A stretch of 64,000 nucleotides of DNA from Lentisphaerota bacterium (GTDB lineage: Bacteria > Verrucomicrobiota > Kiritimatiellia > RFP12 > UBA1067): the NCBI GenBank assembly GCA_015061665.1, contig SUWC01000004.1, forward strand, positions 17,275 to 81,274, written 5' to 3'. The notes beneath the pieces are model-generated. The model made no database searches. It was not told where the DNA came from and worked only from the letters and a program-made list of their open reading frames with translations. Made by a program: the position numbers and the translations under genes. Position 1 is the stretch's first letter. The number at the start of each line of letters is the position of its first letter. This document shows positions 32,334-48,012 of the stretch, piece by piece.

Positions 32334-32472
32334 TCATTCAACCCGACCGTCAATGCAGATTTTACTTTCAAAGTAAAAATTACATATTGAGACAACGCGT
32401 CGACGCCGAGGCCCGAAAGTCGCGCAAAGCGCAAAACTTGCCGCCATGGACTATGCAGAGACGCTTGTCTCG

Positions 32473-32876: not shown

Positions 32877-33644
32877 TTACCACACGAACCCTGGCGCGCC
32901 CGGCTTGGAATGCTTGCTGGTTTTGATCGGATTCTTCGGATGCGCCGCGTTATATTCTCTCACGCGGTCTATCCCGAAGCGTCCCGCGATTTCATCGCCG
33001 CTCATTCCGCCTCGCTTCAGTTCCTCCATCTGACGGAAGTCTGAAGTCTGCGCCAGCGGGAGCTTCTTGCGATTCTTCTCGTACGCCTCGTTTGCTTCAC
33101 GAGCGTTCTTGAATGCGTCCTCGATATCGGCTTTCTTTCCCGGCGTAAGTTCAGGTTCCTTGTGCATTGGAGGCGGTTTCGGCTTCTTGCGACGGGCAGA
33201 CCTTGGCGGCCTTTTTCCCTTTTCAATTGACTCGACGCCGTCCTTCGTCTTATTTTTCCCTTTCCCAAGAACTAGTTCGTATTTCTGGATCAGGAGACGA
33301 TCTTGCATCAGGTCTTTGGCGACGCCCTTCGGCATCATGCGCGGCCATGAAATCTCGTCTGTTGCTCTGTAATATACAATCTGATACTTTGTCCAGCTTT
33401 GAACATCAAGCAGCATCAGGTCGCATATTCCGCTCGTCTCATCGAAGTACGATTCGGTGAGTCCGTAATGGTCGAGCTTGGCGCGATAGCGGCTCTTGAC
33501 ATTCGCCAACGCCCCCGCAATCGCCTCTTCAGCACTTCGCGGATAAGCATTGTTTAGACCATGCGCACTCCCCGCGCAAAGGCATGCGGCAAGCGACAAA
33601 ACCGCCGCCGCAGACCTCACACCTATCTTACACATGTTTTTCAC
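32877..33644 (-). CDS. Hypothetical lipoprotein (Lys/Pro-rich middle)
   Basis: 255 aa with a signal peptide and lipobox-like LSLAAC. GTG at 33644, or ATG at 33635. It starts 13 nt downstream of the preceding gene on the same strand. Confidence 0.6.
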   Translation of the reverse strand: MKNMCKIGVRSAAAVLSLAACLCAGSAHGLNNAYPRSAEEAIAGALANVKSRYRAKLDHYGLTESYFDETSGICDLMLLDVQSWTKYQIVYYRATDEISWPRMMPKGVAKDLMQDRLLIQKYELVLGKGKNKTKDGVESIEKGKRPPRSARRKKPKPPPMHKEPELTPGKKADIEDAFKNAREANEAYEKNRKKLPLAQTSDFRQMEELKRGGMSGDEIAGRFGIDRVREYNAAHPKNPIKTSKHSKPGAPGFVW

Positions 33645-33657
33645 TGCCTCTTATCAC

Positions 33658-34551
33658 TCAGTAAAGTTTCATACGACCCATGCGGTCGTAGATCTGCTCC
33701 GCATCGTGGTGGCGAGAGTCGTCCATCTGTTTCATACGATCGTAAATCTGCTCCGCATCGTGGTGCCGGGAGTCGTCAATCTGTTTCATACGATCGTAAA
33801 CCTGTGACGCATCGTGGTGACGTATGTCGTCATTCTCGACAATACGTGCAAAGCCATGCATCACGACAATGAATATGCAGAACAGAATGGCAGGGCATAT
33901 CCATTGCGTATCAATCTCCTTCCCGCACAGCAGATTCACGGATATGAACCTGAACATCAGGTAATCGACGACAATCCAGATTGTAAAGGCCCAAACAATA
34001 TACCCATAAACGCCAAGGGCTGCTATTTGCAGCCCCATCGGCATCAGCAAGGACAGCGCAATATTGACGAAAATCGGAATCATCCAAGATGAACGCATGT
34101 TAGATGCTGAAAGTTCGGGAAGAAGATTGCCGACGGCAAATCTCTTATAACCCCACCATGCAAGACGCCAAGACATATATATACCGCCTATCCATGCGGC
34201 ATATACTACAATATGCGCCATGCGCTCCGGGAAATCCTTTGGCCAGTCCGCAAACGGCGCGCAACCAATGAGGCTTCCGACAAAACCACCGAGTAATCCC
34301 AAAACGAACGACACAACAAAGACAATCAGCAGTCGCGCAAACCAATACTTCGCCCATGCTTTAAGGCATGCAGATTCAGGCGGGACGTCCACTTGTTCGG
34401 ACGTCTCATTGTCAGGTCTCACCATTTGCGCTCTCGTTTGCCGCGCTCCAGCGACAAACCCTTTGCCGCAAACCTGGCAAGTGACGTACTTGCCAAATTC
34501 GCGCTGTTCTATATCATACTCCGTTCCGCAGTGCGGGCAATTGATGTTCAT
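33658..34551 (-). CDS. Zinc-ribbon polytopic membrane protein with C-terminal His-rich repeats
   Basis: 297 aa with an AAGGAGG SD. The N-terminus MNINCPHCGTEYDI...VTCQVCGKGF carries two CxxC motifs, followed by about 6 hydrophobic spans and 3.6 x 14-aa repeats. Confidence 0.7.
   Translation of the reverse strand: MNINCPHCGTEYDIEQREFGKYVTCQVCGKGFVAGARQTRAQMVRPDNETSEQVDVPPESACLKAWAKYWFARLLIVFVVSFVLGLLGGFVGSLIGCAPFADWPKDFPERMAHIVVYAAWIGGIYMSWRLAWWGYKRFAVGNLLPELSASNMRSSWMIPIFVNIALSLLMPMGLQIAALGVYGYIVWAFTIWIVVDYLMFRFISVNLLCGKEIDTQWICPAILFCIFIVVMHGFARIVENDDIRHHDASQVYDRMKQIDDSRHHDAEQIYDRMKQMDDSRHHDAEQIYDRMGRMKLY
33679..33831 (-). repeat. 42-bp in-frame tandem repeat (about 3.6 copies) encoding DDxRHHDA(E/S)Q(I/V)YDRMKQ(I/M)
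   Basis: The repeated unit ctgtttcatacgatcgtaaatctgctccgcatcgtggtg... is visible in the forward sequence at 33679-33831. Confidence 0.9.
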
Positions 34552-34562
34552 TTGTTTCCTCC

Positions 34563-36938
34563 TTATTGAAGAGCTGTTTCAGCTGGTATATCTTCTGGCT
34601 CAATTCTAATCAACAATTCTTGAGTAAGAGGCGCGACAGTGGATAGGCGTGTTGCCTGTCGTTCTATCGTCTTTTCAAAAAGATTTCGCACATATCTTCC
34701 ATTCCCAAAGTGACTGTCTTTCCTTGACAAGGCCGATGAAACTACAGTATGCAATTTTTCTATCGCGGCCTTCGTCATTTCATACTGATTAGACGTAACA
34801 GATGCCATGTAAATTTCGCACAACTCTTCCTCTGTGTAGTCAGGAAAATTTATGTAGCGATTGAATCGCGATCTCAACCCAGGATTAGCATTGATGAAAC
34901 ACTCCATTTCTCCAGTATAACCAGCAAGGACAACAACGAGTCTATCTCTATCGTCCTCCATCCGTTTAAGCAAAGTATTTATCGCCTCTTTGCCGTAATC
35001 TTCTTTGCCGCCATCTACAAGAGAATATGCCTCATCAATAAACAATACGCCATCTAACGCTTCATCAACAATTTTATTCGTCTTAATTGCAGTCTGCCCA
35101 ACATATTCCCCCACGAGTCCTGAACGATCGGTTTCAACAAGATGGCCCTTCTTCAACACGCCCAACTCCCCAAAAATCCGAGCAAGAATTCGTGCAACGG
35201 ACGTTTTCCCCGTTCCCGGATTTCCTGTGAAAACACAATGACATGAAATATTGGCTACTTTTAGCCCGCTATTTTCTCTGGATTTCTGTATGCGTATGAA
35301 ATTTGAGAGTCTTATAACCTCGTTTTTAACAGAACTCAATCCAATTAATTTATCTAACTCGTCGAAGGCGGAAGTAACGGCGAAATTCTTTATCGAGTTT
35401 GCACATAATCCTGCTGCAGGCGAGTATAAGATTTGACCATCGCTAAATTTCATTAGAGATGCAAGGCAATCGCTTTCCTCGGCAGTGATTTTACCATCAG
35501 CCTTAGCAATGATTGACGCGAGACGATATGTCAGAACAGCATGTCGCCTACAAATATCTTGAGCACATGACGAGAACAGAGTTTGAAATAAAGGCGGCTC
35601 GTTCAACTTGTTGATTATCCCGTGAAGTGAACATATTGTATCCGCAGCCCATATGGAGAGTTCCTCTCGCACTTTACTGTTCTGCAACTCTTTTAATCCG
35701 ACATCATATGCTATCATCTTACACAGCACCAATATGACACCCAATCCTTCCAAGTTGGAATAATCGTCAATCGCATATCCTAACCGCAAGTATGTTTGCA
35801 ACAAATCTTCTATCGCTACATAGAACATTCTGCGATGCTGACATACCAAGCCTTCTATCTCTATCTTGTCGGCGAGATCTATCGCTTTGCTGGCAGACAA
35901 GACCTTGTTGGCATCTTCGTTCTCATCAAGCTCTTTGAAAAAGCTTACCAGTTCATGAGCTGCCCTGTTTATCACCTCAAAATATGCCGGTTCAATCGTA
36001 CTCTTCAGTTCTTTAAGCCGAGAAGGTCGTTTATTTGTTCGTACAAAATTTGGCGGGTCTTCTTCATCCCGTGATAACAATACAGATATCCAGTTGGGAA
36101 TTTTCGCAGAATCCATAAATGACAATGCATTACATATCACGGGCGCCAATACATTTCCAAACTTGTACGTTTTATTTCCATTGGGCGAATCTGTATTTAT
36201 TGTCAATATTATATTATTGGCACTTGCGCTTGAAATCTCTTCTATTGCCGTTTCCATTTCCCTGTGTTCATTTTTAAAACACATCCGATAATCGGTCAAC
36301 AAGAGGTCTCCTTTTTCTTCGCTGTCTCCATGAACGAACGCAGCCTGATCCTGACAATACAACACGCGTTCCTCATCATAGACCCTTATATTTGTTGTAT
36401 TCTCCATCACATGGCATTTGCCACAATTCAACAAATCCTGATACCATTCACCGTACGCATTCAAGAGAGAATGTATTAGCTCTGCCGTTTCACTTGGAAC
36501 AACGCCGTCATTAACAGCGCGTTCAATAAGTTCATGTTCTTCTTTCGCATGATTTTTCGTATCGAAGCCCTGTCTCACATATTTTGCCCCATCGATACGT
36601 TTTAGTAGCCCAATACAGGTGTACATTATATTTCCGTTTCCCCCAACATGTACACTTGCAGTTCCTTGGGTTATTTCAATCCCGTCAGGGCCAATGTAAT
36701 TGACATTAATATCCGATAGCGGTATGTCCGTAATTCCATGAGTGGTGATGTCAAACACCACTCTCTTGTTTGTAATAAAAAACTTCCCAACGGTCTCTGC
36801 TATCGAGCTGTTAGCGTCATAGTAAAACACAAACTCATTGGGCATGCATTTCAGCGGCGCATTTCTGACCGTCCGAAAGGACTCATGTGCCTCAAAGTCA
36901 TTCATCCATTTTTTAAATTCCAATTCTAAGTTATTCAT
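34563..36938 (-). CDS. Multidomain AAA+ ATPase: two PH/GRAM-like modules + TerB-like module + SpoVK/CbbX-type AAA+
   Basis: 791 aa with an AAGGAGG SD. The C-terminus reads LDKLIGLSSVKNEV...FTGNPGTGKTSVAR (Walker A), VLFIDEAYSL (Walker B), NPGLRSRF and GNGRYVRN. The middle carries IAKADGKITAEESDCL (TerB-like). The N-terminus carries GKFFITNKRVVF and GDLLLTDYRMCF. Confidence 0.85.
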   Translation of the reverse strand: MNNLELEFKKWMNDFEAHESFRTVRNAPLKCMPNEFVFYYDANSSIAETVGKFFITNKRVVFDITTHGITDIPLSDINVNYIGPDGIEITQGTASVHVGGNGNIMYTCIGLLKRIDGAKYVRQGFDTKNHAKEEHELIERAVNDGVVPSETAELIHSLLNAYGEWYQDLLNCGKCHVMENTTNIRVYDEERVLYCQDQAAFVHGDSEEKGDLLLTDYRMCFKNEHREMETAIEEISSASANNIILTINTDSPNGNKTYKFGNVLAPVICNALSFMDSAKIPNWISVLLSRDEEDPPNFVRTNKRPSRLKELKSTIEPAYFEVINRAAHELVSFFKELDENEDANKVLSASKAIDLADKIEIEGLVCQHRRMFYVAIEDLLQTYLRLGYAIDDYSNLEGLGVILVLCKMIAYDVGLKELQNSKVREELSIWAADTICSLHGIINKLNEPPLFQTLFSSCAQDICRRHAVLTYRLASIIAKADGKITAEESDCLASLMKFSDGQILYSPAAGLCANSIKNFAVTSAFDELDKLIGLSSVKNEVIRLSNFIRIQKSRENSGLKVANISCHCVFTGNPGTGKTSVARILARIFGELGVLKKGHLVETDRSGLVGEYVGQTAIKTNKIVDEALDGVLFIDEAYSLVDGGKEDYGKEAINTLLKRMEDDRDRLVVVLAGYTGEMECFINANPGLRSRFNRYINFPDYTEEELCEIYMASVTSNQYEMTKAAIEKLHTVVSSALSRKDSHFGNGRYVRNLFEKTIERQATRLSTVAPLTQELLIRIEPEDIPAETALQ

Positions 36939-36999
36939 CCTACTAATCCTCCTTGATTGACTCTCAGTAATGACCGATCTTCATTTTACTAATCGGCGC

Positions 37000-37467
37000 T
37001 TACGACTTACCGATATCTTGATAATGTTGAAGCCCAGCCTTATGTATGCCATAGCTGGCCATGGCACATATAGTAAAAAGAATGACACTTGTCCCTGTAT
37101 TCTCTATAAAGTACTTTCCCACCCAAAAGCCAAGGTATCCCCATGAAACGGAGGCGAGGATACAGAAGAACGCTGACAGCTTAGGGATGCACACACCCAC
37201 AGCTAATAATAATAGAACTGCACCAAAACACCACCATGAACTTGCGGCAAAACCAGCCGCAATAGACAACAACAATATTTCACACCAAACAAAGCCTGCC
37301 ATCTCTTCATTAAGCTTGGCGTCCGTGATGCCTCTGCGGACTGAACTTGACATTGACGCAGGCTTTCCCACAAACACCTTACTACAAGCGCCGCAAATGA
37401 TATTCTGACCGTACAGTGAATCATCAAACGTATTTTCTACCCCGCAATATGGACAATTCAATTTCAT
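37000..37467 (-). CDS. Zinc-ribbon membrane protein (4 TM), paralogous N-terminus to 33658-34551
   Basis: 155 aa: MKLNCPYCGVENTF...IICGACSKVF followed by four hydrophobic spans. It starts 3 nt after the FRG gene stop. Confidence 0.7.
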   Translation of the reverse strand: MKLNCPYCGVENTFDDSLYGQNIICGACSKVFVGKPASMSSSVRRGITDAKLNEEMAGFVWCEILLLSIAAGFAASSWWCFGAVLLLLAVGVCIPKLSAFFCILASVSWGYLGFWVGKYFIENTGTSVILFTICAMASYGIHKAGLQHYQDIGKS

Positions 37468-37470
37468 AGT

Positions 37471-38493
37471 TTACCTCGGCTTTCCATCTTTTAAATCGCA
37501 CAAGTTTTGCCTCTCCCTAAGCCCCAATATTCTGTCGTTGTACCGTACACTCTTCGCTATTCCATCTATATCAGGGTAGATGGTTGCCGCGTTGATGTTC
37601 GCCTGATTAAGCATACGCCACGCATCATCCTCCATTTCAGGATCAAACACAAACTTTATGATCGAACTAGGGAAAAGGATTTCCTCGCAAGGAGTTTTCG
37701 AGACCGACCCCATCCTAACCTCAGGCGGATCGTCGATATCTTTAATCGGCACGTCGAATACCGCTGCAAGATTTTTTGTGAATCCGTCAAATGTGCAAGG
37801 CATCAATTCAATACCTGACTGCGCCATCTGACGCATGTTGAAGCGTGCCTTGTATAGCGGGATGATTCCCATGCCTTTATCGCCATTACCATTGTTTATG
37901 TTTTCTTCCGCCAGTTGCAGCATAAACTTGTGAAAATAATAATTGTCAATCTGTGACTCAATCTCCCACCAGACCTCTTCATCGCCTCGCTTCATCAAAT
38001 CAGAACGCTTTGCGTCCTTCAGATACCTACCTTTCCAGCCGCTTCGTTCTATCAGCATTTTATAGTTGATTGCATATATGGCACGCCCCTCACCCGTCAT
38101 CTTCTCCTCGTACGCAAAGAACAAGGCAACCATTATTGATGTCGTAAAATCCAGAAGCCTTGTTTTAGCTCCATAATGCTGCATGGCCAGAAGCGCGGAA
38201 GTATTCGTTGTCCATCCCTCAAATTCGTGGGCCTTTGCCCTAAAATTGGCAACGGCAAAATGCTCCGCCCTTGGCAATGTGAGCGCAAAAGACTTTACAT
38301 CAGTTTTCATTCCGCGCTTTTCTCGGGCGGTAACAATATCTGCAATATACCTGTCAAGGCCACTATCAAGATGATACGAAACCGACTTATGGCCTCTGAA
38401 AATCCAGCGACCATCACCCATGATCTTCATGACTTTAGTGAAGTCACGCCAATTGTGCAGTTTTATTGTACCTGTCTTCGGTCGTTCAGTCAT
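37471..38493 (-). CDS. FRG-domain protein
   Basis: 340 aa: RWIFRGHKSVSYHLDSGLDR, LLAMQHYGAKTRLLDFTTSIMVALFFA and FNMRQMAQSGIEL match the FRG-domain blocks. Confidence 0.85.
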   Translation of the reverse strand: MTERPKTGTIKLHNWRDFTKVMKIMGDGRWIFRGHKSVSYHLDSGLDRYIADIVTAREKRGMKTDVKSFALTLPRAEHFAVANFRAKAHEFEGWTTNTSALLAMQHYGAKTRLLDFTTSIMVALFFAYEEKMTGEGRAIYAINYKMLIERSGWKGRYLKDAKRSDLMKRGDEEVWWEIESQIDNYYFHKFMLQLAEENINNGNGDKGMGIIPLYKARFNMRQMAQSGIELMPCTFDGFTKNLAAVFDVPIKDIDDPPEVRMGSVSKTPCEEILFPSSIIKFVFDPEMEDDAWRMLNQANINAATIYPDIDGIAKSVRYNDRILGLRERQNLCDLKDGKPR

Positions 38494-38506
38494 AGCTCTT
38501 CCTCTC

Positions 38507-38564
38507 CCGCGCCTACCCTACTGGGAGCCGCCGCTTTGGCGCGGAAAAGGAAAGCGGCGCACCC
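38507..38564. repeat. 58-nt structured repeat, copy 1 (in the divergent region between the FRG operon and the ATPase gene)
   Basis: ccgcgcctaccctactgggagccgccgctttggcgcggaaaaggaaagcggcgcaccc. It is 53/58 identical to 39859-39916. Confidence 0.9.
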
Positions 38565-38613
38565 ATATCGTCCGAAATTTCCAGACAAAAATTGAAAATG
38601 TATCTTCGCCCCA

Positions 38614-38642
38614 TTGACTGGGGACAGCGAATATGATATATT
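38614..38642 (+). promoter_or_regulatory. Sigma70 promoter TTGACT-17 nt-(TGa)TATATT for the 38694 ATPase gene
   Basis: TTGACT at 38614-38619, 17-nt spacer, TATATT at 38637-38642 with TG at -14/-15. Confidence 0.5.
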
Positions 38643-38654
38643 TATCCGTGTAAT

Positions 38655-38673
38655 TTCAACAGTAAATGTTGAA
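38655..38673. promoter_or_regulatory. Perfect 7-bp inverted repeat TTCAACA-5 nt-TGTTGAA between promoter and SD (operator candidate)
   Basis: ttcaaca gtaaa tgttgaa at 38655-38673. Confidence 0.3.
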
Positions 38674-38693
38674 TTTGCAAGAATGGAGGCGGT

Positions 38694-39839
38694 ATGGCAT
38701 ACATAAAACGACGACTTGAAGAAAGCGTACGGCGGGCACTTGAGAGGAATCCGGTGGCTGCCGTGATAGGTCCGCGCCAGTGTGGAAAATCCACATTGGT
38801 GAAGCATCTCCGCGAAGATACGGTGCCATCCGTCTACCTCGACCTTGAACGGCCGTCCGACCTTGCAAAATTGTCCGATCCGGAATTGTTCTTTTCCCGT
38901 CACAAGGACAAACTTATTTGCATTGACGAAATACAGCGCAGAGGCGATTTGTTCCCGGTCATAAGAAGCCTTTGCGACGATTGGGGCGGCAACGGACATT
39001 TTCTTGTGCTCGGCTCCGCCTCGCGCGATCTCATCCGCCAGAGTTCCGAATCCCTGGCCGGACGCATCCGCTATGAACGGCTGACTCCGTTCCTTATTTC
39101 CGAACTTGACGGCGCAGACTGGACAAAGTGCCTTTCCCGAGGCGGATTTCCCCGCGCCTATCTCGCATCCGACGACGATGAATCGAATGAGTGGCATGAG
39201 TCTTTCATCCAGACGTTTCTCGAACGGGATCTTCTGTTCTGGCGTGACTTCGTACCGGAGACGATGCGGCGTCTCTGGAAGATGCTTGCGCACGAAAACG
39301 CCCAGATGATCAACTACTCTCGTCTTGCGGCATCGCTTGGCGTGTCCGACATGACAATCAGGCGATATGTCGATCTTCTCAAAGAGACTTTCATGGTAGA
39401 TGTCGTTCCGCCGTACATATCCAATCTCGGCAAGCGGCTCGTGAAAACGCCAAAAGTCTATCTCTGCGACACAGGGCTGACGTGCGCCCTCCTTGGACTC
39501 AAGTCTTTCGACGAACTTTACGCGCATCCCGCATTCGGAGGATGCTGGGAACAGATGGTTCTGGCAAATGTCAGGGGACTTTATCCAGACGCAGACGTCT
39601 CTTTCTACCGGACATCCGCCGGAGCCGAAATGGATTTTGTCGTCAAGAAAGGCCAGCGGACGGTGGCGCTCGAGTGCAAGGCGTCGTCTGCGCCCTCTGT
39701 CGGAAGGGGCACCTACAGCGCGCTTGACGCGATTCGCCCGGACGCAGCGTATGTCGTGGCACCTGTCGAAGAGACCTACGCGCTCAACGACAGAATCACG
39801 GCTATCCCGCTGTCCGGGCTTGGCGACATATTCGCTTGA
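38694..39839 (+). CDS. COG1373-type ATPase (AAA_14 + DUF4143)
   Basis: 381 aa with a GGAGG SD. Walker A GPRQCGKST, Walker B-like LICIDEIQ, and a C-terminal DUF4143-like region (YxxLLxxxF..., GAEMDFVV). Confidence 0.85.
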   Translation: MAYIKRRLEESVRRALERNPVAAVIGPRQCGKSTLVKHLREDTVPSVYLDLERPSDLAKLSDPELFFSRHKDKLICIDEIQRRGDLFPVIRSLCDDWGGNGHFLVLGSASRDLIRQSSESLAGRIRYERLTPFLISELDGADWTKCLSRGGFPRAYLASDDDESNEWHESFIQTFLERDLLFWRDFVPETMRRLWKMLAHENAQMINYSRLAASLGVSDMTIRRYVDLLKETFMVDVVPPYISNLGKRLVKTPKVYLCDTGLTCALLGLKSFDELYAHPAFGGCWEQMVLANVRGLYPDADVSFYRTSAGAEMDFVVKKGQRTVALECKASSAPSVGRGTYSALDAIRPDAAYVVAPVEETYALNDRITAIPLSGLGDIFA

Positions 39840-39858
39840 CGGCACCTTCATCTCCTTT

Positions 39859-39916
39859 CCGCGCCTACCTGACTGGGTGCTGCCGCTTTGGCGCGGAAAA
39901 GAAAAGCGGCGCACCC
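39859..39916. repeat. 58-nt structured repeat, copy 2 (20 nt after the ATPase stop)
   Basis: ccgcgcctacctgactgggtgctgccgctttggcgcggaaaagaaaagcggcgcaccc. Confidence 0.9.
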
Positions 39917-40474
39917 TCGAAATCCCGTCTCGTGGCAGGTGCCGCTAAGAACCTTAACGAAAAACGAGAAAGGAGGGTACGCCGCGTGATTGCCACGCGA
40001 CGCACCATCGTATTCGGTTTTTCGTTGTGTAAAGTTAGCGGCTTTGCCACGAAACCCAATACGCTGATGTTGCGTACATGCTGCGGGCGTCGGATGCGTT
40101 TCCGCAACTCCCTGGAACGGCGCGCTCGGTGATCGCGCCCTGCCAACGGCGACACGACGATCTTCTCGCGGCCTACCGTCGGCGGCGGCTTTATCGAAAC
40201 GGCCCTGCCGGGGTTTTGGCCAGCACACGGATGCGCCGGCCCGAAGGTTCTCCAAACATTGCAAAATAGGTCAGACCTTCTGTGCAGTGTTAGCGAACCA
40301 ATGACAAAGAACAAGTCGCCCCGCTTGCGCGGAACACCTATATTGTAGCAAAAAAACTTTCTTTTGTGCGCTTCGAAATTATCCACAAGAGTTTCCTCCA
40401 CATGGATATTTCCTGAAAATGCAAAAATCTGACAGGGGAATGTTAAAACACTCAGGACGTAATGCAAAAAAAAC

Positions 40475-41587
40475 TCAATACCAAGGTAGAAGACCCTGTT
40501 TCATGAGCTCCTTGGCTGCTTCCCTGTCGAGCAGTACGGACTCCCCCACCTCGTTCGTCGTTTCTATCATTGCGTCACGATACATGTCATACGTAGCGTC
40601 CAGCAACGCCTCGGCAATCGTATCCTTGATCAACGTCCTGTTTTCATTCTCTGTGCCCTCGATGACGCCCCGGTTCTCTTGCAGAGCTTCCGGCTGTGAA
40701 CACGACCAATCCTTTCGCGTCAATGCAGCTAAAATCGCCGATACGCCTACCGCCGCCAACACCACCGCGGCTGCACATGTCCACCATCTGGCCTCATGGC
40801 GGTGGCGCACTGCCCGCGCGAATTCGGAGACTGACGCATACCGCTGTTCGGGAATCGAACTTGTCGAACGCCTGATAATCCTGGCCCATGCCTTCGGCGG
40901 CTTCCCGTCAAAGCAGACATTCGCCAACATCCCGAGTGCATGGATGTCCGTCGCGGGGCCAATCTTGCCGCCCGCAAACTGCTCAGGCGCCGAAAACCCT
41001 GGAGTTCCGACGCCTACGGCACGCCCATCGACAACGGACACAGTGTCGCTGCACATCTGCGACACGTCCTCGTCTTCCTTCGCAAGCCCCAAGTCGATAA
41101 GAACGCATTCGCCGGTCGAAGGCCGCATCATCACATTGCGCGGCTTGATGTCACGATGGATGAATCCGCGCTTATGCAATTCCTCCACGGCGCGCGCCAC
41201 GCCGAGCACATAGGCGGCAACCGCCGCATCGCCGCGAGGGAGTTCCATCGGCTCAAGCAGTTCTTCGGTCAGGTAAAGACGCCCCGAATCTTCGCCCGCG
41301 TCATAGAACTTCGGGAACGCCGTGCCGGACAGCTCCGCCGCGAGCCGGGCCTCCCGCCTGAATCGCACACGGGCCTTGTCGCCGGCGCGATAAAGCACCT
41401 TCAATGCGCCGACAATTCCTGTTGCGGCATTTTCGGCGCGATATACTTCCGCGCTTCCGCCGCGGCCAAGGAAAGCAAGGGCCTTCCAGCCGCCGACTGC
41501 GGAACCGGGCGCCGCGCCCGGCGGCGGCTCGAAGCGCCCATGCTGGCGCAGGCGCCGCTCAAGCTCGCTTTCCGTCGCATCAGGCAT
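40475..41587 (-). CDS. Ser/Thr protein kinase with C-terminal TM anchor and short extracytoplasmic tail
   Basis: 370 aa: GRGGSAEVY, ALK, HRDIKPRNVMM, DLGLA, GTPGFSAPE, then the TM segment WWTCAAAVVLAAVGVSAILAAL. Confidence 0.9.
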   Translation of the reverse strand: MPDATESELERRLRQHGRFEPPPGAAPGSAVGGWKALAFLGRGGSAEVYRAENAATGIVGALKVLYRAGDKARVRFRREARLAAELSGTAFPKFYDAGEDSGRLYLTEELLEPMELPRGDAAVAAYVLGVARAVEELHKRGFIHRDIKPRNVMMRPSTGECVLIDLGLAKEDEDVSQMCSDTVSVVDGRAVGVGTPGFSAPEQFAGGKIGPATDIHALGMLANVCFDGKPPKAWARIIRRSTSSIPEQRYASVSEFARAVRHRHEARWWTCAAAVVLAAVGVSAILAALTRKDWSCSQPEALQENRGVIEGTENENRTLIKDTIAEALLDATYDMYRDAMIETTNEVGESVLLDREAAKELMKQGLLPWY

Positions 41588-42167
41588 CGCCAGCCTCCTC
41601 CAGTGTGCGCACGATTTCGCGGAGCCGTGCGAGCATGCGGCTCTTTGTCTTGTCGACGTTGTTGCGGTTTGTGCCGTATTCGGCAGCTACCTCGTCAGGC
41701 GAAACACCGTCAACAGTCAGCCGCTGGAATATCTGCTTCGACTTTTCGGGTATCTTGTCATCGTCCAGAATCTGCCGCATGGCGATTTCAAGAACCGCGT
41801 CCTTCCAGGAGTCCGAATCGTCCGGCGTGCCGAACGCCTCGCCTGCCTCAGCCAGTTCCTTTAATTCTGCCTTTGCAGTTCTTTCCTTAGTCGCTTTTTC
41901 GCACTGCTTCAGAGCCTTCCTGCGGAGAATGCCAGTGAGATAGTTCCTGAAGCGACCGGTCTCGTCCGGAGCGTACCGATAGCCGTGTATCACATTCGAA
42001 AGCGCAATCAACGTCTCCTGCACCGTGTCGTCGGCATCGACAGCCGGAAAATGTGACTTCATGTACGCCTGCATCATTGGTCGGTACCGGGCGACAAACT
42101 CCGTCCAGCGCGCATTCTCACCGTTTGCAATGCCTTTCAGAAGCGTAGTTGACGTTTCGGGTATCAT
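41580..42167 (-). CDS. ECF-type RNA polymerase sigma factor
   Basis: 195 aa: TSTTLLKGIANGENARWTEFVARYRPMM, region 2 DDTVQETLIAL, and a region 4 HTH. Its stop overlaps the kinase start by 8 nt. Confidence 0.9.
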   Translation of the reverse strand: MIPETSTTLLKGIANGENARWTEFVARYRPMMQAYMKSHFPAVDADDTVQETLIALSNVIHGYRYAPDETGRFRNYLTGILRRKALKQCEKATKERTAKAELKELAEAGEAFGTPDDSDSWKDAVLEIAMRQILDDDKIPEKSKQIFQRLTVDGVSPDEVAAEYGTNRNNVDKTKSRMLARLREIVRTLEEAGDA

Positions 42168-42289
42168 AGATGTTTCCCCTTATTGCGGGCCACAAGACGC
42201 GGGCAGACTGGAGACAAATCGGCCGAATCCGACAGCCGCCGTGCGGTCGCTTGCCTCCCATGACGACGACGGTAGCTGGGCGCGACGCT

Positions 42290-43591
42290 TCATTGCGGCT
42301 CCAAAATCCATTTCCAGACAGGTACTATCCTGATTCCGTCGGACTCGCGTTCTTCGTCCCATGTTACGACAGTGCAGTCTTGTACCTTGATTTCGCCTCT
42401 CGCATCTTTCAGCGCCGTCAACTCGCGCCGCACGGTCTCAGAATCCGAAAGCTCCCATGAAACTTGCACAAGACGGCGTTTCTTCGTCACCCTGTCAGTC
42501 ACAAGGAAGTCTACCTCGTCTCCTTTCCGGGTGTTGTAGTATTCGATCTTGTTGAACCCTCGCCGCAAGGCCATGAATACGAGATTCTCAAGAAGCCATC
42601 CACGGGACGCATCGCTCTTTGGTGTCACCGCGCGGGCAAGCCCGGTGTCGACGAGATAGAACTTGTCGGGGTTCATCCTCCGCACGGCAAGCGAATCCGT
42701 GCGAATCGGGACTCTGTAAACGAGATAGGCCTGCTCAAGCCAGTCGAGATAGTCCGCAATGTACTCACGGCTGTCGGAGAGCCCCAGTCCCTTCAAGACT
42801 CCGGATATCGCGCGAGTCGATATCTTATGCGCAAAATTATGCTTGATGTAATCCAGTGTGTAGCGAAGCGACTGCACGCTCGGCACATCATGACGCTCGA
42901 TAATATCCCGATAGAGCACGGCGTCAACATATCCCTGCAGCGTCTTCACGCGGATGCGGAAATCGTCGCCTTGTACATCCGGGAAACCGCCTTCTTCCAA
43001 GTATCGCTGCATCGCATGCCGCAGCACACCGGCCATCCGCGATGAGTATGGGGCCACCGGAATCTCCCCAACAAGGGCATTAAAGCGCAAGAACTCGGCA
43101 AAGGACAGCGGGAACACCTCGACGTCAATTGAACGGCCGCGCATTTGAGTCGCAATCTCGCCCGAGAGCATCTTCGACGACGATCCTGTCAGGCAGAGCT
43201 GCACCAAGTGCGAATCCAAAAGCCTGCGGGCATATAGCTCCCACCCGTCGATGTCTTGAAGTTCATCAAGAAAATACCAGCACCTCTCCCTTGCCGCCTC
43301 CGGAAACATCTCGGCATGGACGCCGCCAATCAGCTTCAGATGCTCAAGCTTGACGCCTTTTAGCCGATCGTCGTCAAAATTGACGTGGACAATCCGCTCC
43401 AGCGGAACGCCTTCCTCGACAAGCGCGCGCATCCTCTGGTATGTGACGTATGTCTTCCCCGTTCGCCGCATTCCAGTGACAACAGTCGCAGAATTACGCT
43501 TTTCAAAATAATCGACATCGCGAGGGCGAACGTCTTCGGGTATTCCGAATTCGTAAAACTCGCGCATTATCTCTCCAATGACTGCTTTCAT
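42290..43591 (-). CDS. COG1373-type ATPase (AAA_14 + DUF4143), second copy
   Basis: 433 aa: Walker A GMRRTGKT, WYFLDELQ, and a C-terminal GDEVDFLV block. Confidence 0.85.
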   Translation of the reverse strand: MKAVIGEIMREFYEFGIPEDVRPRDVDYFEKRNSATVVTGMRRTGKTYVTYQRMRALVEEGVPLERIVHVNFDDDRLKGVKLEHLKLIGGVHAEMFPEAARERCWYFLDELQDIDGWELYARRLLDSHLVQLCLTGSSSKMLSGEIATQMRGRSIDVEVFPLSFAEFLRFNALVGEIPVAPYSSRMAGVLRHAMQRYLEEGGFPDVQGDDFRIRVKTLQGYVDAVLYRDIIERHDVPSVQSLRYTLDYIKHNFAHKISTRAISGVLKGLGLSDSREYIADYLDWLEQAYLVYRVPIRTDSLAVRRMNPDKFYLVDTGLARAVTPKSDASRGWLLENLVFMALRRGFNKIEYYNTRKGDEVDFLVTDRVTKKRRLVQVSWELSDSETVRRELTALKDARGEIKVQDCTVVTWDEERESDGIRIVPVWKWILEPQ

Positions 43592-43598
43592 ACCATGA

Positions 43599-43607
43599 AT
43601 TATATCA
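43599..43607 (-). promoter_or_regulatory. Extended -10 box TGATATAAT, 7 nt upstream of ATG 43591 (leaderless-type)
   Basis: Forward attatatca at 43599-43607. Confidence 0.5.
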
Positions 43608-43646
43608 CGCCTTCGACTCCACCGTCAACAGTTCTGGCAAACTTTT

Positions 43647-43674
43647 TTAGCCATATCATATCTATTATGGCTAA
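43647..43674. promoter_or_regulatory. 9-bp perfect inverted repeat TTAGCCATA-10 nt-TATGGCTAA
   Basis: Located in the 213-nt intergenic region between the lipid-kinase stop and the ATPase promoter, flanked by T-runs. Confidence 0.25.
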
Positions 43675-43804
43675 ATTTCTTTGCCACGATGCAAACTCGT
43701 CTCGCTGCGAAACCGCCACCGAAAAGCAACCACGGGAAGCACAAACGGAATTTGCAACATCGCTACAGTAAAATTTGCACCCAATTTTACGGCGGCAATG
43801 TGAA

Positions 43805-44647
43805 TTAGGCAATCATCGCGAGGGAACGAGACGCAAAGGAAATTTCGACCGGCAATGCGCCGTGAGGGTCGCCGTCGTATTCAAGCGCGACTGACAAATT
43901 GGACGAGATGGCCGTTTTGCCGCGAAGGACGCGGATTTCTCCGCAGGGCTTGCCGCGATACAGATTCCAGACAATCCGCAAGCATCCGAAACGCGACACA
44001 TCCTTCGCAAACCAAAGCGCGTACTCGTCGTCGGCAAGCGGAGGGGGCGCAATCTTGAGTCCGCCGGCGATCCGCGATATCCGCGTAACGAGGGCATGGG
44101 CGACGTTGCAGATTTCCTCGCCGTTCACCATGATGTCATAGCGTCTGCCGCGCACGACTTCGCGCAGAACAGCCCAGAGCGTTCCAATGAAATCGCCGAA
44201 CTTCGGACGTAGCCGATTGGCAGATTCCGCAACCGCCGCGCCCATCCCCAGATTCATCGAACAAAAGAACGGCATGCCATTTGCCGCAAGAACGGGAATC
44301 TCTCGGACCGCGCCATTGCGCAAGACGGCGACTGCCTGTTCCGCATTCGTCGGGATGCCATGCGCACGGCAGAAATCCGGACTCGTGCCGGCGTAGATGA
44401 CGCCGAACTTGAGCGACGTGTCCGAATTCTCCAGAACTCCGCCAGCCACGGCGTTGATCGTTCCGTCGCCTCCGCAAGCGACTACTGCTTCATATCCCTT
44501 TGCCTCGCGCGCAAGACGCGACGCTTCCTCGATGTTCTTAAGGACTACAAACTCCCCTTCCGGCAGCAACTCACGAAGGCGCGGCAAAATGCGGCCGGAG
44601 CGTCCGCCGTGCGAAAGCGGATTGACCAAAACGAGAAATCGTTTCAT
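43805..44647 (-). CDS. Lipid kinase, DAGK catalytic-domain family (YegS/BmrU/sphingosine-kinase-like)
   Basis: The start was moved to ATG 44647 (MKRFLVLVNPLSHGGRSG), an ATGA overlap with the upstream stop. GGDGT motif (VVACGGDGTINAV). Confidence 0.8.
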   Translation of the reverse strand: MKRFLVLVNPLSHGGRSGRILPRLRELLPEGEFVVLKNIEEASRLAREAKGYEAVVACGGDGTINAVAGGVLENSDTSLKFGVIYAGTSPDFCRAHGIPTNAEQAVAVLRNGAVREIPVLAANGMPFFCSMNLGMGAAVAESANRLRPKFGDFIGTLWAVLREVVRGRRYDIMVNGEEICNVAHALVTRISRIAGGLKIAPPPLADDEYALWFAKDVSRFGCLRIVWNLYRGKPCGEIRVLRGKTAISSNLSVALEYDGDPHGALPVEISFASRSLAMIA

Positions 44648-45888
44648 CTGTAGATTCCCATTTTGTCGTAAACCTTCGTCGGCGTGCCGCCCTTCCAGCC
44701 GGCGACGAGTTCCTCCGTCTCTGCCCAAGGAAGAGGAAGTCTATCGCCCGCCTTCATCGCAATCTCGACAGCGCGGCGCTCGCACGTCCACTCCTCGCAC
44801 GGCACGGCGAACGCCTTGCGCATCCGCGCATACGCAGTCTCGAACGGCACCTCGTTGAGATTCCCGAAGGAGATGTTAACGAACTCGCACGGCTGGACGT
44901 CTCCGTTCGCGCCTACGTAGAAGCGGTCGATTCCGCCGCAGCAGCATCCGAGCATCTCCGCGGACTCCTCGTAGACCTGCGCCGTGAGAATCGTCGGGAT
45001 GCGCGACTTGGCGGAATTGTAGTGCCGCTGCGCGGCGCATGCGACGCGGACGGCTTCTGCGTGGAGCGACTTGTCGAACGCCTTGCCCATCCACGCGCCG
45101 CATGCCTTCGGATGGATAAGCTGGATGTAGTCGCAGTTGTTTTCCGCGGCAAGGTCCATGATGCGGTCGATTCCGCCGTCAACGACTTCACGGTCGGAAA
45201 GCACCGTATTGAACCCGACAAGCATTCCCGCTGCGCGGCAGTCGCGCAGGAAATCGAGCGCACGGCGCCAAGATTCGGCGACTCCCGTGAACGCATCGTG
45301 CGCTTTCTCGTCTACGGAGTGAATGGACGACATCACGCCCGTCACCTTCAGTTCCGCTAGGCGGCGAATCTTCTCCAGCGTCGCGCCGTGTCCCGTCGAA
45401 TTGACCCACACCTCAAGTCCCGCAATCTCCGTGAGAACCGCCTCAAGTCGTTCGAATCGGAGAAGCGGTTCGCCGCCTTCGACAGCCCACGCGACAATGC
45501 CGAAGTCGCGCATCTTGCGGACGTTCTCGACGAGGACGGGCAGTGGCAACTCGTGCGGGTCGTCCTTGCGCTGGTAGCAGTGCGGGCATTTGTACGCACA
45601 CGCCTTTGAAATCGAGAGAACGACGCTGACGGGGCGCGGCGGACGGCAGACGACCTTGTCCTCAAGGGCTGTGAAGAACGCCTGGGACGGATAGCGCGGC
45701 AGATAGAAGTCGAGCTTGTATTCGCCGGTCGCGAGACGCTTCAACTTGTGCTTGAAGAAGATGCGCGTCAGCTGCGACGCCTTCATGAGCGCTGCGGGAT
45801 GACGCCAGTACCGCCACGCGCACGCAAGCGACATGCGCACATAGAACAAGAACTTGCGGACCCCAGTTATGTTCTCATTCCTTTTCAT
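44644..45888 (-). CDS. Radical SAM enzyme with C-terminal SPASM/twitch-like Cys cluster
   Basis: The start was moved to ATG 45888 (MKRNENITG). CxxxCxxC in SKACAYKCPHCY. C-terminal CCCGGIDRFYVGANGDVQPCEF...CEEWTC. Confidence 0.8.
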   Translation of the reverse strand: MKRNENITGVRKFLFYVRMSLACAWRYWRHPAALMKASQLTRIFFKHKLKRLATGEYKLDFYLPRYPSQAFFTALEDKVVCRPPRPVSVVLSISKACAYKCPHCYQRKDDPHELPLPVLVENVRKMRDFGIVAWAVEGGEPLLRFERLEAVLTEIAGLEVWVNSTGHGATLEKIRRLAELKVTGVMSSIHSVDEKAHDAFTGVAESWRRALDFLRDCRAAGMLVGFNTVLSDREVVDGGIDRIMDLAAENNCDYIQLIHPKACGAWMGKAFDKSLHAEAVRVACAAQRHYNSAKSRIPTILTAQVYEESAEMLGCCCGGIDRFYVGANGDVQPCEFVNISFGNLNEVPFETAYARMRKAFAVPCEEWTCERRAVEIAMKAGDRLPLPWAETEELVAGWKGGTPTKVYDKMGIYR

Positions 45889-46801
45889 CGTTGTACCAGA
45901 GAAAGAGAAGCTGGATGGCGACAAGGGAGGCAATTTCAAATGGCCATGTGTCATAGAACCAAAATGCATGGAGAGACGCAACGCAAAGCTGGCAGTTAAG
46001 GCAGGTCGCGGCATGGTAGTTCCGTTTCTGGATGCAAATGAAATGCACTGCCGCAAGCACAGCAACGGCCAATGGCTGAAGAAACACCCAGTACGACTCG
46101 CCAAAGCCCAAAGCCACAATGCACGACATCGCCACCGCCAGCAGCGCCAGAAGCAATGTAACAGCCTTGGAGACAACGGACGGGAAAACTGTCTGGAGCG
46201 TCCGAACGCCTGCCGCGCGGTCTCCTGCGATATCCTTGTAGTAGCTGTTGTGGCACATTAGGAAGTGCTGAGGGAGAACCATGATTGCGACAATAAGGAA
46301 CCAAGACCAGTACGGCCTTTCCCATTCGCCGTAGACACCTGCGATAGCGTACAGCGCACAGCATGATATCGACGCGGCATAGACGAGGCAATTCAACACA
46401 GGCACTCGCTTCAGACGCGAATAAAGTATATTAAGGCATCCGCCTAGAATCAGGAACGGAATCGTCCAAAATGACATCCACGCGCTCGTGCCTGCAATGA
46501 CGATCAATATCGCGGCAGAGAGTGCGAACGCAGGACGAGGCGCCAATGCGCCGGTCACCATCGGGCGGTGCGGCGCGTTGATTGCATCCTCTTTCCTGTC
46601 GCACCAGTCGCTGAATATCTGGTTTGCACCCCAGGCAAGGAATCCCAATGCAATCATCGTGATTTCTTGCGCCGTCATCGGAAAAAAGGGCTCATCGTTT
46701 GCAAAGCGGGCAATGCACAGCCCCACCAACACGGTCGTCGCGGTGACGAATCCGTAGTAGAGCCGCATCGAGCGAAAGTAGTAGTAGAGAAACCTCAGCA
46801 C
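45875..46801 (-). CDS. UbiA-family prenyltransferase (polytopic membrane)
   Basis: Asp-rich motifs NQIFSDWCDRKEDAIN and YYKDIAGDRAAGVRTL, with about 8 hydrophobic spans. I prefer the GTG start at 46801, which overlaps the upstream stop. An alternative ATG is at 46768. Confidence 0.8.
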   Translation of the reverse strand: MLRFLYYYFRSMRLYYGFVTATTVLVGLCIARFANDEPFFPMTAQEITMIALGFLAWGANQIFSDWCDRKEDAINAPHRPMVTGALAPRPAFALSAAILIVIAGTSAWMSFWTIPFLILGGCLNILYSRLKRVPVLNCLVYAASISCCALYAIAGVYGEWERPYWSWFLIVAIMVLPQHFLMCHNSYYKDIAGDRAAGVRTLQTVFPSVVSKAVTLLLALLAVAMSCIVALGFGESYWVFLQPLAVAVLAAVHFICIQKRNYHAATCLNCQLCVASLHAFWFYDTWPFEIASLVAIQLLFLWYNDEKE

Positions 46802-47979
46802 ACGAGGGCCTTTGCGATTACATCCGCGGCCTCGTCGATGATTTCGGTCGTATGCGCGGCGGTTACGCTGGTGCGGATCAGAGCGGCGCCCTCGGGTGTT
46901 GCAGGCGGAATGAACGGATTCACGAACACGCCTTCGTCGAACATCTTCCTTGCGGCCGCGCATGTCTCGTACGTGCCGCCAGCCTGTATCGGTATTATCG
47001 GCGTGAAGCGGCGCATGGCAGGCTCCAGCACCGGCAACCCGCGCGACGCGAACGCAGTGCGCGTGTATTCGGATATCGAACGCAGCTTCGCCACAAGCTC
47101 TGGATGCTGCTTCAGGTATCTCACCGCGGCGAGCGCTGCTGCCGCGCTCGCGGGAGGCACCGAGGCGGAGAACACGAACGGGTAGGACGAATGGCGCAGG
47201 AAGTCGATTACCTCGCGCTTCCCGGCCGCAAAGCCGCCGAGCGAGGCGAGGGACTTCGAGAACGTTCCCATGACAAGATCAACGTCCGCGTCAAGTCCGA
47301 AATGCGAAGCCGTGCCGCGTCCGCCCTTTCCGACAACGCCGAGTCCGTGCGCGTCGTCAACCATAACGGCTGCGCCGTACTTCTTCGCCAGTGCGCAGAT
47401 GTCTGGGAGGTTTGCGATGTCTCCGTCAACGGAGAACACACCGTCCACCACAACAAGCGCCCCCGAGCCGGACGGAACCGAGGCGAGGCGCGCCTCGAGC
47501 CCCGCCATGTCGTTGTGCTTGAAGCGGAGCATCTTGCCGAGGCACATGCGGGCCGCCGAATAGATGCTCGCGTGGTTGTCGACGTCGCAGACAAGATAGT
47601 CGTGGCGGCCTACGAGCGCGCTTATGACGCCGAGGTTCGTCTGGAAGCCGGTGCCGAACGTTATCGCGTCCTCCTTGCCGACGAAGTCCGCGAGCTCGCG
47701 CTCGAGTTCGAGGTGGAGGTCGAGCGTGCCGTTGAGGAAGCGCGAGCCGGAGCAGCCAGTACCATACTTCTCGACCGCCTTGACGGCAGCCTCCACGACT
47801 TCCGGACATGTCGTGAGTCCAAGGTAGTTGTTGGAGCCAAGCATGATGCGGCGCTTGCCCTCCATCACCACGACGGCGTCCTGTCTGGACTCAAGCCGAT
47901 GGAAATACGGATAGACCCCTGCCCTGCGTGCGTCCTCCGCACGCGTGTCGGCCACGCATTTTTCAAATACCTGCTTCAT
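46795..47979 (-). CDS. PLP-dependent alpha-oxoamine synthase (serine palmitoyltransferase / KBL / BioF family; SPT-like)
   Basis: Start at ATG 47979 (MKQVFEK, SD AAGGGGG). Motifs IMLGSNNYLGL, GSRFLNGT, VMVDDAHG, the Lys motif GTFSKS, and IPPATPEGAALIRTSVTAAHT. Confidence 0.9.
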   Translation of the reverse strand: MKQVFEKCVADTRAEDARRAGVYPYFHRLESRQDAVVVMEGKRRIMLGSNNYLGLTTCPEVVEAAVKAVEKYGTGCSGSRFLNGTLDLHLELERELADFVGKEDAITFGTGFQTNLGVISALVGRHDYLVCDVDNHASIYSAARMCLGKMLRFKHNDMAGLEARLASVPSGSGALVVVDGVFSVDGDIANLPDICALAKKYGAAVMVDDAHGLGVVGKGGRGTASHFGLDADVDLVMGTFSKSLASLGGFAAGKREVIDFLRHSSYPFVFSASVPPASAAAALAAVRYLKQHPELVAKLRSISEYTRTAFASRGLPVLEPAMRRFTPIIPIQAGGTYETCAAARKMFDEGVFVNPFIPPATPEGAALIRTSVTAAHTTEIIDEAADVIAKALVC

Positions 47980-48003: not shown

Positions 48004-48012
48004 ATTATACCA
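48004..48012 (-). promoter_or_regulatory. Extended -10 box TGGTATAAT for the four-gene cluster (24 nt to ATG 47979)
   Basis: Forward attatacca at 48004-48012. The ORF-track start at 48015 would place this box inside the coding sequence, so I rejected it. Confidence 0.5.

Follow-up and report, generated by a model that had tools for sequence, protein, structure and literature searches.

The 64,000-nucleotide stretch of DNA analysed here (hereafter the window; contig SUWC01000004.1 of assembly GCA_015061665.1, from a Lentisphaerota bacterium) carries four overlapping minus-strand genes, which encode an alpha-oxoamine synthase (AOS), a UbiA-family membrane transferase, a radical SAM enzyme and a soluble lipid kinase of the diacylglycerol kinase (DAGK) type. 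We find that these genes form the promoter-proximal end of a larger conserved module, with six to seven genes in all, which probably makes a membrane lipid that joins a sphingolipid-type backbone to an isoprenoid chain. The invariant core of the module (UbiA, radical SAM and two kinases) is part of no described sphingolipid, ether-lipid, quinone or tetrapyrrole pathway. We regard the cluster as a strong lead and not as a solved pathway. The genes and signals of the window locus, including a displaced fifth gene, are as follows.

46795..47979, minus strand: AOS1, alpha-oxoamine synthase (pyridoxal phosphate-dependent), 394 aa; PF00155, 177 bits
45875..46801, minus strand: UbiA-family integral membrane transferase, 308 aa; PF01040, 100.8 bits (cut-off 34.2)
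44644..45888, minus strand: radical SAM enzyme with a SPASM/twitch-like C-terminus, 414 aa; PF04055, 61.1 bits (cut-off 29.5)
43805..44647, minus strand: soluble lipid kinase, DAGK_cat/YegS_C, 280 aa; PF00781, 80.1 bits (cut-off 23.6), and PF19279, 33.1 bits (cut-off 27)
31242..32180, minus strand: ThiL-like ATP-dependent kinase (PurM/AIRS superfamily), 312 aa, the displaced fifth gene
32181..43804: insertion of 11.6 kb between the kinase gene and the ThiL-like gene
48004..48012, minus strand: extended -10 promoter-like element TGGTATAAT, as read from the sequence
~47990-47986, minus strand: GGGGG Shine–Dalgarno sequence ahead of the ATG at 47979, as read from the sequence
32325..32353, minus strand: promoter-like site upstream of the displaced ThiL-like gene (TTGACG, 17-nt spacer, TATGAT preceded by TG)

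Conservation of the module

A tblastn survey of relatives yielded 88 loci, 42 of which have enough flanking sequence for counts (corrected for L007 and L041, in which the AOS gene overlaps the gene for the ThiL-like protein). The genes for UbiA, the radical SAM enzyme, the DAGK-type kinase and the ThiL-like protein are colinear in all 42, always in the order UbiA, radical SAM, DAGK-type kinase and then the protein with the AIRS domain (PF00586). An AOS gene is adjacent in 38 of the 42 loci, and a gene for an extended short-chain dehydrogenase/reductase (SDR) is present in 39. The genes are tightly packed, with median gaps between aligned gene ends of -11 (UbiA/radical SAM), +2 (radical SAM/kinase) and +22 nt (kinase/ThiL-like), and the gene overlaps recur across about 80 related loci; the annotated genes of L002, L004 and L007 show the same 14-nt overlap of UbiA and radical SAM genes as the window. 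Synteny in about 80 loci rejects a chance juxtaposition. The sequence-only reading had treated the four window genes as one unit. They are indeed coupled and overlapping, and they are kept together widely (core in 42 of 42 loci, AOS in 38), although the whole conserved set comprises six to seven genes.

Relatives of the radical SAM enzyme are encoded in 168 species-representative genomes, and its homologues are mostly from Lentisphaeria, Victivallales and Kiritimatiellae. The closest of these genomes are metagenome-assembled genomes (MAGs) from rumen and gut labelled Kiritimatiellae or Verrucomicrobia, with radical SAM proteins that are 88-96% identical, and the window itself is from a Kiritimatiellae genome of the rumen type. 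Overall, the carriers are anaerobic bacteria of the Planctomycetes–Verrucomicrobia–Chlamydiae (PVC) group (Kiritimatiellia, Lentisphaeria/Victivallales and some Planctomycetota) and a few others, from gut and sediment, and genomes from lakes, groundwater and digesters contain the cluster as well. A MAG labelled Victivallis vadensis (L041) is among them.

Four further genes recur. In 18 loci, mostly environmental ones, an FMN oxidoreductase of the old yellow enzyme (OYE) type stands between the genes for the AIRS protein and the AOS, and in 17 loci from gut the SDR is followed by a ferredoxin-nitroreductase fusion. The other two are a MarR regulator gene upstream of the cluster (10 loci) and an inserted gene for a DUF4143 ATPase (7 loci). 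Clustering of the flanking open reading frames of about 85 loci gave no recurrent families beyond these four. One locus (L090) presents a complete row of AOS1, UbiA, radical SAM, DAGK-type kinase, AIRS protein, SDR and ferredoxin-nitroreductase.

No ceramide synthase or other N-acyltransferase and no acyl carrier protein (ACP) recurs in the flanks of the same loci (open reading frames below 110 aa were not screened), and the intergenic gaps inside the cluster are too short for an ACP gene. We considered a GNAT-aminotransferase fusion upstream of UbiA in L071 as a ceramide synthase-Spt fusion and rejected it: it is CobD/HisC-like and occurs once. The absence of ceramide genes had been noted from the sequence alone. 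For the window this extends to a CerR-type reductase; elsewhere an extended SDR is a regular member of the cluster.

Gene junctions and expression signals

The coordinates and overlaps of the four minus-strand reading frames that had been given in the sequence-only reading agree with the open reading frame list and with the junctions as we read them, its family assignments are right (Pfam scores above cut-offs), and the motifs it had named (YPYFHRLES, IMLGSNNYLGL, GTFSKS and GGDGT) are all found in the translations. The AOS1 stop codon TGA occupies 46797-46795, and an in-frame GTG, the UbiA start, lies at 46801. This start adds 11 residues (LRFLYYYFRSM) to UbiA, and appears to be the right one because the added segment contains columns that are invariant in homologues only 31-45% identical. 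The UbiA stop at 45875 and the radical SAM ATG at 45888 give the 14-nt overlap, and an ATGA at 44647-44644 is common to the radical SAM stop and the kinase start.

The promoter and Shine–Dalgarno sequence that had been proposed for the unit correspond to the extended -10-like TGGTATAAT and the GGGGG listed above; the former is promoter-like by sequence. A two-hexamer promoter scan does not list the TGGTATAAT site because it has no -35 match. The same region (48004-48040, minus strand) contains a tandem direct repeat, GTTTTTGTGGTATAG followed by ACGTTTTTGTGGTATAAT, and the -10-like element is therefore duplicated in degenerate form.

Alpha-oxoamine synthases

AOS1 clearly resembles serine palmitoyltransferase (SPT) more closely than KBL, BioF, ALAS or CqsA. 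In a search of the PDB, the SPT of S. multivorum (3A2B) matched with 404 bits and long identical stretches along the alignment, followed by ThAOS (a thermophilic AONS/KBL; 273 bits), E. coli KBL (260), BioF (184) and ALAS (175). The best NCBIfam model is likewise an SPT model (NF047600, CFB type; 496.6 bits, under its cut-off of 640), and a second SPT model, NF047599, gave 385.8 bits (cut-off 500), compared with 369 for KBL, 356 for BioF (both under their own cut-offs), 248 for ALAS and 190 for CqsA. All aligned catalytic motifs are kept, with residues identical to those of 3A2B in the lysine motif GTFSKSLASLGGF, NHASI (HAS) and DDAHGLG (DDAH). We call the enzyme SPT-like and not SPT because it falls under the curated equivalog cut-offs. 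The earlier suggestion that the synthase is SPT-like and neither BioF nor KBL is borne out by both searches. An identical synthase sequence is also present on a JGI metagenome contig.

Most clusters contain a different synthase, AOS2, which shares 34-35% identity with AOS1, is extended at its N-terminus by about 60 residues and is not assignable by score to SPT, KBL or BioF (274 vs 265 bits). The two synthases are non-orthologous; each is found in different lineages, and they never occur together in one cluster. This mutual exclusivity suggests that an AOS step is integral to the pathway, and it appears to be one step that the two enzymes carry out.

An AOS1-type synthase, 65% identical to that of the window, was also observed in another gene context (L089:5622-9191, GCA_045599105), with neighbours for an SDR, a small protein, an FAD/Fe-S (DHODB-type) protein and a MatE exporter, and with a second AOS gene 4 kb away. 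PVC bacteria may thus have a further locus, distinct from the cluster, for sphingoid lipids.

UbiA and its radical SAM partner

UbiA belongs to the superfamily of that name by its PF01040 score above the gathering score, its two Asp-rich motifs (SDWCDRKEDAINAPHRPM and YKDIAGDRAAGVRTL; SDWCDRKED and KDIAGDRAAG are present) and its polytopic topology, with about 8-9 hydrophobic helices predicted. Among named families and solved structures, DGGGPS and (bacterio)chlorophyll synthase come closest, before UbiA, MenA and MqnP, and no other solved structures were matched. The best scores are far below the respective cut-offs (PRK12884, 72.1 bits against 269; DGGGPS, 63.9 against 296; ChlG, 57.4 against 313), and sequence similarity points to DGGGPS and chlorophyll synthase as the nearest branch only. 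A CxxCxxC near the C-terminus was considered as an Fe-S site and rejected, as it is not kept in distant homologues.

The window UbiA is only 56-72% identical to its counterparts in L009, L010, L016, L021 and L036; the flanking AOS1 and radical SAM proteins in those genomes are mostly 93-97% identical to those of the window (exceptions are AOS1 in L016 and L021, at 76%, and L036, which has no AOS1). The catalytic loops of UbiA are nearly invariant among these relatives and the transmembrane helices are rewritten, a pattern suggestive of diversifying selection, or of allelic exchange, in the part that binds lipid.

In about 20 protein clusters (for example, P0055-P0075 and L005:10001-12175), UbiA and the radical SAM enzyme are fused into one protein of roughly 715 aa (706-787 aa), which implies that the UbiA C-terminus is cytoplasmic. 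The fusion point coincides exactly with the 14-nt overlap of the unfused genes. An AlphaFold2 model of a natural fusion is of low confidence (pTM 0.48; pLDDT <50 in the linker and SPASM region). DSSP assigns ten long helices to the UbiA part of this model, which may correspond to ten transmembrane helices.

The radical SAM enzyme carries the motif CAYKCPHC (CX3CX2C) and a marginal SPASM match (PF13186, 22.3 bits; cut-off 21.5). Its invariant cysteines are C97, C101, C104, C315, C334 and C369; as only the last three lie in the C-terminal part, this domain may be twitch-like and not a full SPASM domain. An N-terminal extension of about 85 aa forms a conserved domain of its own, with the motif YKLDFYxPxYPSxAFF. 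The protein reaches no named NCBIfam family, the best being GeoRSP with 96.3 bits against a cut-off of 400, and neither scores nor structure matches place it with GeoRSP, NirJ, AhbD, PqqE, MoaA or Tes. Foldseek searches with an AlphaFold2 model (pLDDT 85.5) matched SkfB, SuiB, PqqE, DesII and anSME, generic SPASM/twitch enzymes, with TM-scores of about 0.5, and the matches of Foldseek and of a PDB profile search also include viperin and MoaA. Kinship to a characterised lipid enzyme such as Tes/GDGT-MAS was considered and rejected, because neither the PDB profile search nor Foldseek with this confident model gave any sign of it. More distant relatives found in a search of 1.84 billion proteins are unnamed, and some are fused to methyltransferases; examples are P0410 and P0438 (150-180 bits), which are fused to BioC-like or CpaM-like methyltransferase domains.

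Two adjacent kinases and an extended SDR

The DAGK-type kinase has both domains of its family and the motif CGGDGTINAV, and its nearest structures are DgkB, YegS and BmrU. It falls under every NCBIfam cut-off.

The ThiL-like protein reaches 89.9 bits with the thiL model TIGR01379, under the cut-off of 184.15, and lies outside a thiamine gene context. A profile of its family matched ThiL (1VQV) over the full length (residues 3-261; E = 4e-22), with weaker matches to SelD (8e-7), HypE (2e-6) and PurM (1e-4). The invariant D23, D39, D67, GGD115 and D185 align with conserved Asp and GG positions of ThiL. All 120 listed homologues of the ThiL-like protein have the AIRS domain only, and the few with a name are called 'hypothetical protein'. 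ThiL is, to our knowledge, the one member of the PurM superfamily that phosphorylates a phosphate monoester.

The SDR of the cluster is of the extended, 3-beta-HSD/epimerase type and OleD/HpnA-like.

A split copy in the window

The sequence-only reading had missed the ThiL-like gene of the window, which lies 11.6 kb from the kinase gene. In a tblastn search with AIRS proteins of the cluster (from L002, L004 and L005), 31242-32180 was the sole match in the window, on the same strand as the cluster. This gene has 82-92% DNA identity to the gene that follows the kinase in L009-L036, and synteny ends right after it. In L009 and L010, about 25 nt separate the kinase gene from the ThiL-like gene. 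In L011, L013 and L017, only a DUF4143 gene, 98-99% identical to window positions 42290-43591, stands between them. The main features of the insertion are as follows (gene families from Pfam).

42290-43591: DUF4143/AAA_14 ATPase
41580-42167: ECF-type sigma factor
40475-41587: Ser/Thr kinase
~32.9-39.9 kb: low-GC island with FRG-domain and AAA proteins (GC 0.43-0.53 at 32-40 kb)

The products of the low-GC island are an FRG-domain protein, an AAA ATPase of 791 aa, a zinc-ribbon protein and others without a family; the island may be a defence or mobile one. The promoter-like site at 32325..32353, a consensus match, suggests that the displaced ThiL-like gene is still expressible after the insertion.

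No SDR or nitroreductase homologue was found in the 64-kb window, even at E = 10. In some relatives, too, the place after the ThiL-like gene is without an SDR and is occupied by genes that are unrelated or of a defence type: by eye, translations of L023:5858-11123 include a Dcm-type methylase, an SNF2 helicase and ATPase-like proteins, and those of L017:12713-16601 a peptidase U32-like protein and a large secreted protein. The junctions of the cluster thus seem to be favoured insertion points.

Between the ThiL-like gene and Dxs (27686-29506), the window encodes a 546-aa protein with about 10-12 predicted transmembrane helices (29508-31148, minus strand), which matches no Pfam or NCBIfam family and is without a homologue in any related locus. 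Its N-terminal motif NQDEGWY is faintly reminiscent of GT-C glycosyltransferases.

Proposed pathway

Our best mechanistic reading, to which we assign a probability of about 0.5, is that a sphingoid base is made, phosphorylated once or twice, joined to an isoprenoid by UbiA and modified by the radical SAM enzyme; the substrates are those that family chemistry would predict. The SPT-like AOS would produce a 3-keto sphingoid base by condensing a long-chain acyl thioester with serine or something closely analogous, a step proposed because of the close similarity to a characterised SPT. The extended SDR, present in relatives and not in the window, would then reduce the ketone to the sphingoid base. 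On the basis of family chemistry and the invariant adjacency of the two kinases, the DAGK-type kinase would phosphorylate the lipid alcohol, and the ThiL-like kinase would add a second phosphate or otherwise activate the monoester; given that adjacency and the monoester chemistry of ThiL, successive phosphorylation to a lipid diphosphate is the most economical account. The sequence-only reading had proposed backbone formation, prenylation, a radical step and then phosphorylation; the diphosphate intermediate that the ThiL-like kinase suggests was no part of that proposal. UbiA, of a branch that O-prenylates phosphorylated or carboxylated lipids, would join the phosphorylated sphingoid unit and the isoprenoid, and its physically coupled radical SAM partner would modify the substrate or product of UbiA in the membrane. 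In many lineages an FMN reductase, either OYE-type or the ferredoxin-nitroreductase, may finish a C=C or redox step, and the presence of these reductases suggests that one of the stages has an activated C=C. This route would yield a phosphorylated hybrid lipid, part sphingoid and part isoprenoid, with no ceramide synthase involved.

A more specific version, which we put forward only tentatively and regard as less likely than not, is that these PVC anaerobes make an unrecognised class of membrane lipid: glycerol phosphate is replaced by a phosphorylated sphingoid base, a DGGGPS-like UbiA prenylates this base and the radical SAM enzyme remodels the product, while the ThiL-derived kinase makes a lipid diphosphate. 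The abundant rumen and gut Kiritimatiellae and Victivallales would then have a sphingoid analogue of archaeal DGGGP. Lipid-diphosphate activation by a ThiL-derived kinase is chemistry that we know of nowhere in lipid metabolism.

Several observations weigh against the sphingoid-isoprenoid reading. No enzyme of the cluster reaches the curated cut-off of any functionally defined family. For most clusters, serine and a long-chain acyl group are not secure substrates, given the KBL/BioF-like ambiguity of AOS2; three close relatives (L013, L017 and L036) are without an AOS gene beside UbiA, and the SDR is lacking in three loci and in the window. The isoprenoid donor is assumed, as the neighbourhoods have no recurrent gene for a polyprenyl-diphosphate synthase, GGGPS or a prenyl reductase. 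The substrates of UbiA enzymes are diphosphates, and a saturated sphingoid diphosphate would be an unusual donor for them. In the ThiL-like family, DTSGG replaces the DISDG of ThiL, with the loss of one Asp that is conserved in ThiL. Finally, the radical SAM enzyme has a modelled fold of a generic kind, which offers no hint of the reaction catalysed.

Alternative explanations

The two kinases are always adjacent and stand beside the UbiA-radical SAM pair, and ThiL chemistry takes a monophosphate to a diphosphate, which is the defining substrate of UbiA enzymes. These facts would also suit the salvage of prenols, in which both kinases turn a free isoprenoid alcohol (candidates are phytol, geranylgeraniol and farnesol, which are abundant in the rumen and in anoxic detritus) into the diphosphate donor, and UbiA transfers it onto the amino-alcohol made by AOS and SDR, to give the same hybrid product. 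The lack of a recurrent polyprenyl-diphosphate synthase near the cluster would be explained, and plants offer a parallel in VTE5/VTE6, which provide chlorophyll synthase and VTE2 with phytyl diphosphate; the UbiA of the cluster is itself ChlG-like. However, no DAGK_cat or ThiL-type prenol kinase is known, the methylerythritol phosphate pathway is present (Dxs, 27686-29506), such that prenyl diphosphates could come from de novo synthesis, and the cluster is carried by lake, groundwater and digester genomes too. We consider salvage unlikely.

The ambiguity of AOS2, which is not specifically SPT-like, leaves room for a smaller product: an amino-ketone that is cyclised or dimerised, prenylated and tailored by the radical SAM enzyme into an N-heterocyclic cofactor or signal, with ring closure by the PurM-superfamily protein (using ATP) and oxidation by a flavoprotein, to give a lipoquinone-like carrier or a signal. 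Prenylation of aromatic rings is common among UbiA enzymes, most members of the PurM superfamily activate carbonyl oxygens for cyclisation or dehydration (PurM and HypE are among the weaker matches), and nitroreductase-type and OYE flavoproteins and a MarR regulator accompany the cluster. This is nevertheless quite improbable: AOS1 matches a long-chain-specific SPT with 404 bits, far above other AOS types, the kinase has the DAGK_cat and YegS_C architecture of a lipid kinase, UbiA is closest to O-prenylating lipid enzymes and not to UbiA, MenA or MqnP, and the AIRS protein fits ThiL far better than PurM.

An SPT-like AOS, an SDR and a DAGK-type kinase also resemble the SPT, keto-reductase and sphingoid or ceramide kinase steps of ordinary bacterial sphingolipid synthesis, with UbiA, the radical SAM enzyme and the ThiL-like protein as unrelated housekeeping neighbours. 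We judge this very improbable, as the part of the cluster that is never broken (42 of 42 loci) consists of UbiA, radical SAM, DAGK-type kinase and ThiL-like protein and not of AOS, SDR and kinase; UbiA and radical SAM overlap or are fused; the AOS is exchangeable and sometimes absent; and no N-acyltransferase or ACP recurs nearby.

A role of the synthase as BioF or KBL in biotin or threonine metabolism is effectively refuted, despite shared family membership and substantial model scores (356 and 369 bits), by the far higher SPT scores (497 and 404 bits) and by separate genes in relatives, namely a Tdh-KBL pair in L005 and, in L006 at a distance of about 2 kb from the cluster, a BioW-BioF fusion of 617 aa together with BioA and BioD (L006:16485-20469; GCA_002371135, UBA3761). 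The gene at 23251-23994, previously called BioH-like, had seemed to favour a biotin role; the match proved to be a generic alpha/beta-hydrolase one (49 bits against a cut-off of 207, nucleophile elbow only), and being weak and generic it says nothing about biotin.

Comparison with known systems

The statement, made from the sequence alone, that no described pathway has this enzyme set still stands: we found no description of UbiA, radical SAM and two kinases with AOS and SDR in the full-text literature (subscription papers mostly lay outside reach), and a 2026 review of lipid-modifying radical SAM enzymes does not mention the set. If the sphingoid-isoprenoid reading is true, bacteria would build sphingoid lipids without a ceramide synthase, with an isoprenoid replacing the N-acyl chain, and the boundary between sphingolipids and archaeal-type isoprenoid lipids would be blurred. 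It would also provide first functions for a widespread UbiA-radical SAM pair and for a ThiL paralogue, and would add a reaction to those of lipid-modifying radical SAM enzymes. Carriers turn up frequently in metagenomes of the rumen and the human gut, and it is known that sphingolipids of bacterial origin get to the host and have effects on it. With six to seven genes, the cluster is compact and thus directly testable.

The Caulobacter sphingolipid set consists of Spt, ACP, bCerS and CerR. The module shares with bacterial sphingolipid pathways a synthase near the SPT of S. multivorum and, in relatives, an extended-SDR reductase alongside the DAGK-type kinase. It differs in that no ceramide synthase or ACP recurs and most clusters use the unclassified AOS2; the full canonical ceramide set (Spt, ceramide synthase, reductase and ACP) is found neither in the window cluster nor in the loci whose flanks were clustered.

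With DGGGPS and ChlG, UbiA has in common the motif form D-x2-D-x3-D, INAPxRP and then KDxxGDxxxG. As acceptor, ChlG uses a carboxylate and DGGGPS a hydroxyl on a glycerol phosphate ether, in each case an oxygen nucleophile of an amphiphile, and sphinganine 1-phosphate resembles the ether that DGGGPS uses. Unlike these enzymes, for which no radical SAM coupling or fusion is known, the UbiA of the cluster is coupled or fused to such an enzyme; it scores 57-72 bits against their cut-offs of 269-313, and the middle Asp of motif 1 is not conserved in the environmental clade. The archaeal ether-lipid pathway differs further, as no glycerol-1-phosphate dehydrogenase or GGGPS recurs in the flanks of the approximately 85 loci.

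The sequence of alcohol, monophosphate, diphosphate and UbiA substrate in the plant VTE5/VTE6 system is matched here by two adjacent kinases beside a ChlG-like UbiA, although the plant enzymes are membrane CTP-dependent kinases and those of the cluster are soluble DAGK_cat and ThiL-like proteins. Unlike ThiL itself, the ThiL-like family always occurs in the lipid cluster and not among thiamine genes.

Known lipid-modifying radical SAM enzymes include the tetraether synthase Tes/GDGT-MAS, the ring synthases GrsA/B and the bacterial Mss (see PMC9433317). The radical SAM enzyme of the cluster resembles them in its auxiliary-cluster cysteines and, on the sphingoid-isoprenoid reading, would likewise act on a membrane lipid, in this case one made by UbiA; it has no detectable specific similarity to them and possesses a unique N-terminal domain. 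Compared with all of these systems, the prenyl, radical and diphosphate extension of a bacterial sphingoid-lipid cluster appears unprecedented, and there is a real chance that it leads to a new class of lipid.

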